Shown here piece after piece: positions 8,177-9,302 of a stretch of 64,000 bases of DNA (positions are counted from its first letter, which is position 1; the number at the start of each line of letters is the position of its first letter). The notes below the pieces were generated by a model, which worked only from the letters and a program-made list of their open reading frames with translations, was not told the origin of the DNA and made no database searches. Origin of the DNA: Moorena sp. SS36440bin_2 (GTDB taxonomy: Bacteria; Cyanobacteriota; Cyanobacteriia; Cyanobacteriales; Coleofasciculaceae); assembly GCA_011524395.1 (NCBI GenBank), contig WTKN01000377.1, positions 7,935 to 71,934 of the forward strand, in the 5' to 3' direction. Both the position numbers and the translations under genes were made by a program.

Positions 8177-8740
8177 TGTGCTAGAATAAGAGAGTCGTCT
8201 AACACAGACAGGATTCGTCGGTACTGTCATAATTTCACGAGCGTTTTGCGATGTTAGCACTTGAGGCGCGAAAAACCTCATTAAAAACGTATGGATCCGT
8301 GCCAGATACCGACAACCAGTAAAGCAAACTTTGAAAACAAAAGTACCGTGGGGTTAGAAGTTACCGTAAGAAGAGTGGAGCCAAAATCGGCAAAGTTTTA
8401 ACCCTTTTACCCATAGCCGACTAACCATAAAGGCTCCACTCTTCTTACGGTTTCGTCTCCGGCACACGGAAACTGAGGAAACTCAACGCTTAGGGAGACA
8501 AGCCCACTGGGGTTAGTTAAATTAGGCTAGATGTTTGGTTTTTAACGGGCATTTGGCTTAAATATTGCCTTTGACGGATAGCTAATTTTAGCGATGCAGC
8601 GCGGTCTTGGGGAGGCAGCGCGGTCTTGGGGGTCTCCCCCATGAGCGACTGCCGTGGTTTCCCCCATGAGCGACTGCATGGCTGACAAGGCATGGCTCGG
8701 AACTAAGAATCCCCGTTCTTACTTCGGCGGGGAGTGTCAA
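8120..8740 (+). mobile_element. Internally deleted, non-autonomous IS200/IS605-type element with secondary insertions
   Basis: Left-end-like hairpin AAGCCCCCTCCTTCTAGGACGGCTT (~8143-8168); tnpB C-terminal remnant STVG/HTET around 8342-8475; right end AAGAATCCCCG...CGGCGGGGAGTGTCAA (8705-8740). Boundaries approximate. Confidence 0.65.
8352..8462 (+). mobile_element. ~107-109-bp hairpin element, copy 1 (GG-flanked)
   Basis: 20-bp perfect stem 8363-8382/8432-8451 around a 49-nt loop; removing the element restores the tnpB codons AGT ACC GTG GGG CAC ACG GAA ACT. Confidence 0.75.
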
Positions 8741-8942
8741 TAAAATCAAGCAACACTTAAGATCTAGTTGACAAAATTTGGATTATGATGTATTACACAA
8801 ACCTAACAAAACACTGTCGTTTTATAGTCTCGGCTTGAGTTATAGTAAACCCCAGATCAGGCAATGCTTTTAGCTAAAGGCTTCTCGCGCCTTTAGCTTC
8901 CTCCGCTAGACATGCCCCACACCTCAATGCGCAGCATGAGTG

Positions 8943-9050
8943 TTTAAAGTTACCGTAAGGATAGGGTCGCCTTTATGGTTAGTCGGTTATGGGAAAAGGG
9001 TTAAAACTTTGCCGATTTTGGCTCCACTAACAATCAGGTTTCGTCTCCAG
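8943..9050 (+). mobile_element. Hairpin element, copy 2 (degenerate stem, inverted loop)
   Basis: Same outer ends as copy 1 (AAGTTACCGTAAG ... GGTTTCGTCTCC), but loop 8972-9019 is the near-exact reverse complement of the copy-1 loop. Confidence 0.7.
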
Positions 9051-9194
9051 GGATGAATCGCGGAGCTGGAACTCTGATAAACAGCCTGAAAAACGTTATA
9101 ATAAAAATAGCAGGGAAGACAAATTAAGAGCTAACCGCCACCTGCGTGTTTAAAAATAGAACTTTTTGTATTGTAAGGCGTGGGTCGTGGCATC

Positions 9195-9302
9195 CCGGAG
9201 AGGAAACCTTAGAAGAGGGCAGCCTTAATCATAAAGTTTTAACCCTTTACGCATAACCGACTAACCATAAAGGCTGCCCTCTTCTTGCGGTAACTTCTGA
9301 CC
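9195..9302 (-). mobile_element. Hairpin element, copy 3 (GG-flanked)
   Basis: Reverse complement reads GG-TCAGAAGTTACCGCAAGAAGAGGGCAGCC-loop-GGCTGCCCTCTTCTAAGGTTTCCTCTCC-GG. Confidence 0.75.

Follow-up and report, generated by a model that had tools for sequence, protein, structure and literature searches.

Within a 64,000-nucleotide stretch of the Moorena sp. SS36440bin_2 genome (assembly GCA_011524395.1, contig WTKN01000377.1, positions 7,935 to 71,934; hereafter the window) lie three copies of a short hairpin element, representatives of what is apparently an undescribed, gene-less family of MITEs (miniature, non-autonomous mobile elements) of about 107 bp that is specific to Moorena. The element inserts precisely at a pre-existing GG and leaves GG at both junctions. 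We judge it somewhat likely, with a probability of roughly 55%, that the family is moved in trans by a dinucleotide-core recombinase, the likeliest candidate being an IS607-family serine transposase, and that the inversions of its central loop are passive.

The three copies had been proposed in a sequence-only reading of the window, and direct and inverted repeats together with BLAST (E-values among the copies of 1e-17 to 1e-24) place them at 8352..8462 (copy 1, plus strand), 8943..9050 (copy 2, plus strand) and 9195..9302 (copy 3, minus strand). The left ends of copies 1 and 2 form a direct repeat (8353-8382 and 8942-8971), as do their right ends (8432-8460 and 9020-9048), and the minus-strand position of copy 3 is evident from the 87% complementarity between 8352-8382 and 9272-9302. 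The loops of copies 1 and 2 are mutually reverse-complemented even though the ends are co-oriented (8374-8411 against 8991-9028), and copy 3 has the internal arrangement of copy 2; the inversion of the copy 1 loop relative to both other copies, as first proposed, is therefore borne out at 97% complementarity over 38 nt. We refer to the loop orientation of copy 1 as A and to that of copies 2 and 3 as B. One rare variant of the loop is shared by copies 1 and 2, in opposite orientations. Copy 1 is flanked by GG at 8352-8353 and 8461-8462 and occupies the site ACCGTGGGG^CACAC (^ marks a junction or boundary throughout) in the 3′ remnant of a tnpB gene. Copy 3, which belongs to a subfamily with GGTCAG/CCGC ends, has GG on both sides at the site TTAACGAYAC^GGGATGCC. 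The double GG claimed for copies 1 and 3 is thus present, and the junctions of copy 2 are degenerate, the left one having no GG. Copy 1 has a perfect 20-bp stem and folds as DNA at −27 kcal/mol (z = −7.3); copy 3 folds at −20.3 kcal/mol (z = −3.9). Copy 2 folds no better than shuffled sequences (z = −0.2) because its two arms, GGATAGGGTCGCC and GGCTCCACTAACAATC, are not complementary and derive from different stem variants. A twin of copy 1, 98% identical, is found at the same site in a host copy (C18) that is only 72–83% identical.

BLAST searches with the three copies against the window's genome (7.75 Mb in 441 contigs) detected about 140 loci, which is a lower bound since many contigs end within a copy. 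At least 95 stretches were matched by a pattern scan that covered a single genome for each species, and among the matches listed those that are genuine all come from Moorena (M. producens 3L, M. bouillonii PNG and two Moorena metagenome-assembled genomes). Collections of plasmids and of viral contigs contained no match to the element. Nine pattern matches in a metagenome collection resemble chance, and neither of the two inspected (L102 and L099) is a family member. A search of Rfam over 7900-9600 returned only sub-threshold look-alikes of microRNA precursors, owing to the hairpin shape. A literature search with the end sequence retrieved only primers, and no paper was found on MITEs in Moorena.

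The analyses below use 162 full copies, drawn from the window's genome and the at least 95 Moorena loci. In its 5′ half the element consists of GG, a conserved left end T[TC][AT]GAAGTTACCG and a variable arm of 13–16 nt; a 48-nt loop, the complementary arm, a conserved right end GGTTTCGTCTCC and GG follow. The loop is edged by ..GCC and GGC.., so that the arrangement CC-loop-GG is present in 122 of 122 distinct copies. With a length of 105–111 bp, no coding capacity and many dispersed copies, the element has the attributes of a MITE (under about 300 bp).

The rule of insertion emerges from comparison of filled and empty sites. At all recurrent sites the filled version is the empty version plus the element and one extra GG. 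The empty sites are GTGGGGCAC in tnpB 3′ ends (49 occurrences), CATGGGGG, which has five Gs, in a tandem-unit repeat (256), TTAACGAYACGGGATGCC (eight), AAGAGACTGGCACGTTGCG in the middle of tnpB open reading frames (ORFs; five) and GAGTACTTGGTCAG within IS607 tnpA (six). A copy at C369:31788-31895 interrupts an IS607 tnpA gene, and its removal restores the reading frame. GG stands on both sides at the canonical spacing in 119 of the 162 full copies, and the orientation of insertion is fixed relative to the target GG. The same comparison can be made for the window. When the flanks of each copy are joined, they match uninterrupted paralogues in the genome across the junction with 79–88% identity; for copy 1 the empty-site paralogue at C175:48268-48551 is 79% identical over 289 nt. 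The copy 1 site, ACCGTGGGGCACAC, occurs uninterrupted 49 times and encodes TVGH in intact TnpB ORFs elsewhere. Empty paralogues of the copy 2 site read GCATGAGTGTGGGATGAATCG, and the copy 3 site has eight empty versions and 15 filled ones, all in orientation B. Precise empty sites therefore exist for every recurrent target and for the three window copies, which is the polymorphism expected of a MITE. The small non-autonomous element inserting at GG that had been suggested from the window alone is upheld by these data, empty sites having one GG and filled sites GG on both sides.

The choice of targets is the most unusual feature of the family. In the window's genome, 47 of 51 copies (92%) have at least one flank in DNA that is repeated three or more times, compared with 65 of 400 random positions (16%). 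The targets include the tnpB 3′ end, mid-tnpB positions, the IS607 tnpA ORF and IS200/IS605-like ends. Palindromic repeats of two families are hit as well, as are further copies of the hairpin element. A preference for the omega-RNA regions of tnpB elements, as claimed earlier, is real but too narrow a description, given that tnpA, IS200/IS605-like ends, palindromic repeats and the element itself are also hit. About 60% of copies reside at nine recurrent sites. Moreover, in 27 pairs the elements are identical at 107/107 positions and the 200-bp flanks are only 60–90% identical, indicating that diverged paralogues have been entered precisely, and more than once, at one and the same position, and excluding co-inheritance with the host repeat. 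Gene conversion extending into the flanks was considered as a source of these identical copies and rejected, since even the first 15 flanking bases are just 89% identical. Selection for harmless landing sites can account for the enrichment in repeats, not for the identical positions.

These observations bear on the idea that the hairpin is immobile, a built-in module of the host repeats (an omega-RNA stem or a terminator) that was amplified along with them. The location of 92% of copies in repeated DNA and the correlation of target classes with element subfamily would both be expected of such a module. It is largely refuted, however, by the empty versions of every host site, and the at least 39 unrelated contexts (including a disrupted tnpA ORF) and the identical elements in flanks of 60–90% identity also argue against it. 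We regard it as extremely unlikely.

The target contexts form at least 39 clusters with the consensus K-GG-R-A-N-G, about 6 bits in all; across these clusters only the GG is conserved, plus G or T at position −1 (0.69 bit). The subfamilies differ in the contexts that they occupy. Copies with the GGTCAG...CCGC ends are found at GG^GATG in 25 of 36 cases, and the GGTTAG or GGTTTG...CCGT subfamilies at GG^GGG and GG^CAC. The CATGG^GGG sites of the tandem-unit palindrome are the commonest target of orientation-A copies, with 24 insertions, all A. At the tnpB site the GG lies in the apical loop of a small hairpin that covaries (CCGTG..CACGG, CGGTG..CACCG, CGGCG..CGCCG), and many targets lie within or beside hairpin-forming DNA. 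No common structural rule for the targets was found, the GG being looped at the tnpB site and paired at others.

The use of dinucleotide cores by IS110-family recombinases had also been pointed out; under such a mechanism the element would be a miniature IS110/IS1111-type derivative inserted by an RNA-guided DEDD recombinase that leaves its core dinucleotide on both sides. The dinucleotide at both junctions, the asymmetric ends and the site-specific recurrence are all in keeping with this. Such a mechanism is nevertheless unlikely in the extreme because at least 39 different target contexts, rather than a single target, share only K-GG-R-A-N-G. In addition, no IS110-type protein is present among the 40 largest multi-copy ORF families, part of which were annotated, and copies that differ in stem and loop occupy one and the same target, which speaks against the variable stem acting as a guide. 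The stem was likewise rejected as a target guide in general, as one target carries many different stems.

What kind of enzyme would produce these junctions? IS607-family serine transposons (IS607, IS1535, ISC1926) have GG at both junctions, a single GG in the empty target and no other duplication (Chen et al., PMC6188088), and the junction pattern of the hairpin element is the same as this published one. The two also resemble each other at their ends, where the termini are not identical and an imperfect inverted repeat lies close by (PMC6188088). In the reading that we favour, the element would be excised as a circle carrying one GG, and the circle would then integrate at a target GG, a trans-acting recombinase exchanging strands within the dinucleotide core; the likeliest candidates for this enzyme would be the IS607-family serine transposases. 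The long inverted arms would permit occasional inversion of the loop, either when replication switches template intramolecularly at the hairpin or through gene conversion from an oppositely oriented copy, with the palindromic arms serving as homology. The same processes could copy one arm onto the other and so give rise to compensatory stem changes and chimeric copies. Candidate enzymes are available, since tblastn located serine TnpA genes, with Pfam Resolvase plus MerR domains, at about 15 loci. One of them lies in the window itself (63531..63971, plus strand; Pfam Resolvase, E = 2.6e-14). It has no end similarity to the hairpin element and exemplifies a candidate enzyme class, one with the matching junction signature.

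Alignment of 13 copies of an IS607 subfamily that is abundant in Moorena (for example in C10, C17, C42, C69, C134, C182, C309 and C369, and in L016, L032, L082, L085 and L092) confirmed the GG-to-GG pattern for it, with ends GG^NTTGTNACAGTT ... AAAAGTATC^GG; the right end also occurs as ...TTTGGTAGATTTTGGTAGCTAAAAAGTATC^GG, and G[GT]TAGAT motifs are repeated. About half of the copies of this subfamily carry an identical hairpin element in tnpA. The left end of the hairpin element, GGTTAGAAG, and its loop, ATGGTTAGTC, have a GTTAG core akin to the G[GT]TAGAT motifs. We treat the 6-mer resemblance of GTTAGA to these repeats as a lead to a binding motif rather than as a test.

The most serious competitor is single-stranded movement by a Y1 (HUH) transposase of the IS200/IS605 or RAYT type, as for REPINs or PATEs, with the hairpin as the recognition structure. 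One guide at the foot of the hairpin would then set both cleavage sites, so that target and right end would both finish in GG. A hairpin with strong covariation, fixed-orientation insertion without duplication beyond the GG, and the many targets in or beside hairpin-forming DNA would all suit such a mechanism. The genome is full of IS200/IS605-type elements and has about 10 Y1 tnpA loci, one of which is 300 bp from a copy of the element (C129). Known IS200/IS605 elements, however, have two separate subterminal hairpins and a conserved target of 4–5 nt on the left flank only; here there is a single large hairpin, and only the GG and a weak G/T at −1 are conserved, with no 4–5 nt target on the left flank. 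Furthermore, a successful chimeric subfamily does not fold, nor does copy 2, and the ends resemble those of no Y1-bearing element. In addition, because the loop can face either strand, it cannot be part of any structure specific to one strand. On balance we think Y1-mediated movement possible but unlikely.

We turn now to the loop. Relative to the asymmetric ends, 74 of the 162 full copies are in orientation A and 88 in orientation B, so that the family does not have one fixed loop orientation. Closely related copies nearly always agree: opposite orientations occur in 2% of pairs with 0–1 loop differences, in 29% with 2–3 differences and in about 50% with six or more. The two orientations do not go back to a single ancient split, since at least four independent cases of a clean flip on one stem background were found, with stems that are identical or nearly so and loops that differ by 1–2 bases. 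L054 (A) and L057 (B) share the same stem, and a single base separates their loops; C140 (A) and C121 (B) resemble this pair; L046 and L063 (both A) nest within a subfamily that is B throughout apart from them, their loops differing at two bases from those of their B relatives; and window copies 1 and 2 make up a further case. A maximum-likelihood tree of the 122 distinct copies requires at least 20 changes of orientation, compared with 34–50 when labels are shuffled; the tree rests on about 110 columns of a mosaic family and we therefore take the 20 changes only to mean ‘many’. The family thus shows the recurrent, independent inversion of a segment bounded exactly by inverted arms that characterizes hairpin-mediated small inversion. 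The rate of flipping is comparable to that of a few substitutions per loop, and this fits spontaneous events at an inverted repeat of 20–27 bp.

The sequence-only reading had called the loop ‘invertible’. In the sense of an active switch this is not supported, since the closest pairs agree in orientation in 98% of cases and no locus was seen in two states in the assemblies, where the flank-matched pairs with opposite loops are all diverged paralogues with flanks 72–90% identical. Because the closest relatives nearly always have the same orientation, the behaviour is that of a slow evolutionary flip-flop and not of a switch. The corresponding alternative to passive flipping is active inversion by a site-specific recombinase, for example by the same serine transposase acting at the GCC/GGC edges as GG cores, which would make the loop a true two-state module. 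It draws on the invariant CC-loop-GG edges, on the near-equal numbers of the two orientations and on one pair of copies, copy 2 and C121:10810, whose exchange points lie within 3 bp of the loop. Against it stand the agreement among closest relatives and the lack of a two-state locus, as above, together with the finding that no invertase is linked to copies and that whole target classes are fixed in a single state (24 A and no B in one, 15 B and no A in another). The chimeras, moreover, are equally explicable by conversion between copies. We consider active inversion very unlikely. A CCGG sequence at the circle junction was also considered as the cause of the flips and rejected, as it predicts ends that were never observed.

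The changes in the stem may be a by-product of the same events. Over 13 loop-proximal stem positions, Watson–Crick pairing amounts to 89.8% in the 122 distinct copies, compared with 66.5% (maximum 70%) when partners are shuffled. Eight stem positions are occupied by two to four pair types, and pairing is perfect over the 13 positions in 79 of the 122 copies. Chimeric copies, with two arms from different variants, also occur and have multiplied. A single template switch between hairpin arms is documented to generate both compensatory changes of several bases and loops that are fully inverted (PMC8794818), and recurrent hairpin-associated inversions of 4–50 bp are known in plastid DNA (PMC12371153). 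Since template switching or arm conversion yields both covariation and flips, selection need not be invoked. The compensatory changes first noted between two of the window copies hold family-wide, then, but the selection on pairing that had been read from them is not required, template switching being sufficient. From our analysis, covariation and flips are probably mechanical consequences of the palindrome; selection for the hairpin in transposition is possible and not required.

Several results weigh against the reading we prefer, namely movement in trans by an IS607-type enzyme with passive flipping. A first group concerns the partner. No gene-carrying longer version with these ends was found in the draft genome of 441 contigs; the longer versions with a recombinase for which the sequence-only reading had proposed a search do not occur among end pairs 0.1–6 kb apart. 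No 10-mer (allowing up to one mismatch) is shared beyond chance with 10 IS607 loci, and there is no end similarity at the 10-mer level to 11 Y1 tnpA loci, their ends or their surroundings. Ends common to a resident autonomous element, the mark of a type I MITE, were thus not found in the draft genome. No arrangement resembling a circle junction or a head-to-tail pair was present in the assemblies. A second group of results concerns the target. The consensus of about 6 bits is too weak to account for the recurrence at particular sites, and IS607 transposases are described as having minimal target specificity, whereas the hairpin element recurs at identical positions and in subfamily-specific contexts. 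Finally, one successful subfamily has mismatches at 8 of 13 arm positions, so that a perfect hairpin is not needed for persistence, and copy 2 and C121:10810 have the same non-complementary arms and opposite loops, with only GCC/GGC common beside the loop. For this pair, conversion or a site-specific exchange is a better fit than simple inversion mediated by the arms.

All combinations of a left with a right end 0.1–6 kb apart were examined as possible autonomous versions and rejected, each of them spanning ordinary host genes. Solo ends proved to be contig ends or nested insertions. A DDE transposase is disfavoured because the two 3′ termini differ under either boundary definition. No classical DDE transposase family is present among the 40 largest multi-copy ORF families. 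Among the multi-copy mobile-element proteins genome-wide, several TnpB subfamilies dominate (over 50 ORFs); the other multi-copy ORFs include 13 RRXRR+HNH (IscB-like) proteins, group II intron reverse transcriptases, Uma2-family nucleases and a 151-amino-acid helix-turn-helix protein present nine times.

A bolder version of movement by an IS607 enzyme would make the element a 107-bp ‘parasite of parasites’ with true target recognition that homes to defined positions in TnpB/omega-RNA regions, IS607 tnpA and other repeats, with its ends setting subfamily specificity and the same enzyme flipping the loop at GCC/GGC. We think this combination quite improbable.

The family can be compared with several known systems. 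It differs from the IS607 family in being gene-less and only about 107 bp long, in having ends unrelated to every resident IS607 end examined and in recurring at the same positions with subfamily contexts, IS607 being described as nearly non-specific. A literature search combining IS607 and MITE found no IS607-derived MITE in titles or abstracts. Cyanobacterial ‘type II’ MITEs, for example those of Anabaena sp. 90, are likewise short, multi-copy and hairpin-forming, have no end similarity to a resident insertion sequence, and are located both intergenically and within disrupted genes, with no partner transposase identified (PMC3542288). Unlike them, the hairpin element has a fixed GG on both sides rather than a length-defined duplication, asymmetric ends, a paired variable stem, a loop in two orientations and a near-exclusive location in mobile elements. 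REPINs, the REP doublets associated with RAYT, and PATEs, which derive from IS200/IS605, resemble it as hairpins of about 100 nt with compensatory stem changes in genomes that encode Y1 transposases. REPINs, however, lie outside genes and are not known to insert precisely from GG to GG with empty sites inside genes, and PATEs have two end hairpins and a conserved left-flank target of 4–5 nt; the Moorena element shows GG-to-GG insertion in genes, a single hairpin and no such left target. As in plastid hairpin inversions and template switches at RNA hairpins, an arm-bounded segment is reverse-complemented recurrently and homoplasiously with the arms left intact (PMC12371153, PMC8794818), but here the copies are mobile and number in the hundreds, and their loop of 48 nt falls at the top of the reported size range. 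With invertons (Hin, Gin, Fim) it has in common a segment bounded by inverted repeats that is found in both orientations; it differs in having no linked invertase, no two-state locus seen in the assemblies and an orientation that is stable among close relatives.

The host repeats of the window copies can be described as follows. Copy 1 lies in the 3′ end of an IS200/IS605-family tnpB element (8177..8530, plus strand) whose tail, with the insert removed, reads ..KSTVG^HTETEETQRLGRQAHWG and a stop. The proposed restoration of the codons for STVGHTET on removal of copy 1 is correct as a reading; the host, however, is only a short tnpB 3′ remnant, because the upstream frame is broken by stop codons. 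Copies 2 and 3 lie in a gene-less repeat of about 300 bp (8900..9421, plus strand). Its end is formed by a terminal hairpin of IS200/IS605 type, at about 9386-9415 (CCCACACTG..CAGTGTGGG), followed by AGTATGTCAC. Both GGGATG sites of this repeat are filled in the window; both are empty at C381:16040-16335, and a single one is filled in C148, C260 and C382. The repeat has a TATAAT-like box, GGTATAATG, about 200 bp upstream. The repeat may be a stand-alone element of omega-RNA type or a PATE-like element. The interval between the two hosts contains, at 8575..8700 (minus strand), a palindromic tandem-unit repeat (GCAGTCGCTCATGGGGG.. / ..CCCCAAGACCGCGC) whose CATGG^GGG sites are empty here. The stack of repeats fills the entire intergenic space between an ORF for a 628-amino-acid sensor/cyclase-like protein (6290-8176) and a peptide-chain release factor-like ORF (9434-10546, minus strand), the latter abutting the terminal hairpin of the host repeat of copy 3.

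Other small elements are interleaved with the family. The tandem-unit palindrome, which is also present at C38:110838-110940 and C248:56830-57022, is roughly palindromic as a whole, with units of GCAGTCGCTCATGGGGG(A/G)AACC on one side and CCCCAAGACCGCGC(TGCC/AAAT) on the other. It is also inserted within hairpin loops, as GCCTT^gtcagccatgcag...cgcaaatcacgc^TAATCAATAAG; as the hairpin element in turn resides in the palindrome, the two families have invaded each other. A further dispersed hairpin repeat is the target called ‘type 4’, a palindrome that is perfect over 45 nt, CCAGGCTTTCATCCCCG gtgtttttaaac CGGGGATGAAAGCCTGG (−43 kcal/mol), with examples in C357 around 14415 (minus strand) and in the flanks of L069, C31 and C369:17374. 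In copies at C315:14554-14639, C432:28681-28755 and C132:~750-910 a mini-hairpin of 26 nt, CCCCAGCGAGCAATCCCTCGCTGGGG, interrupts the left arm or stands in its place, and the C132 copy has an additional insert of about 90 nt within its loop. The mini-hairpin and the loop inserts represent further layers of nested small elements. Composite forms of 150 nt, with one hairpin element within the loop of another, occur at C118:16001-16153 and in C138, C205, C208 and C433. Their junction is GCAT^AGCC, without GG, and is bounded by TTTGA...TTTGA; they represent either a different mode of insertion or a recombination product that was later amplified.

Overall, the family presents an IS607-type GG-to-GG junction without genes, and a 107-bp substrate would offer a handle on how a serine transposase chooses its ends and targets. 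Site recurrence in hosts that have diverged by 10–40% implies target selection far beyond the weak consensus. If the improbable ‘parasite of parasites’ reading were true, no miniature partner of IS607 transposases would have been described before this element, and these supposedly non-specific enzymes would be directable to chosen sites. The family is also a large, internally replicated case of hairpin-driven loop inversion with compensatory stem change, and it carries the warning that selection on an RNA does not follow from covariation when hairpins are repeated. Many contig ends in Moorena assemblies are breaks caused by the element, a point of importance when genomes of the genus are mined for natural products. 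Furthermore, its recurrence at tnpB/omega-RNA regions and in transposase genes bears on how RNA-guided TnpB elements are inactivated and colonized in nature.

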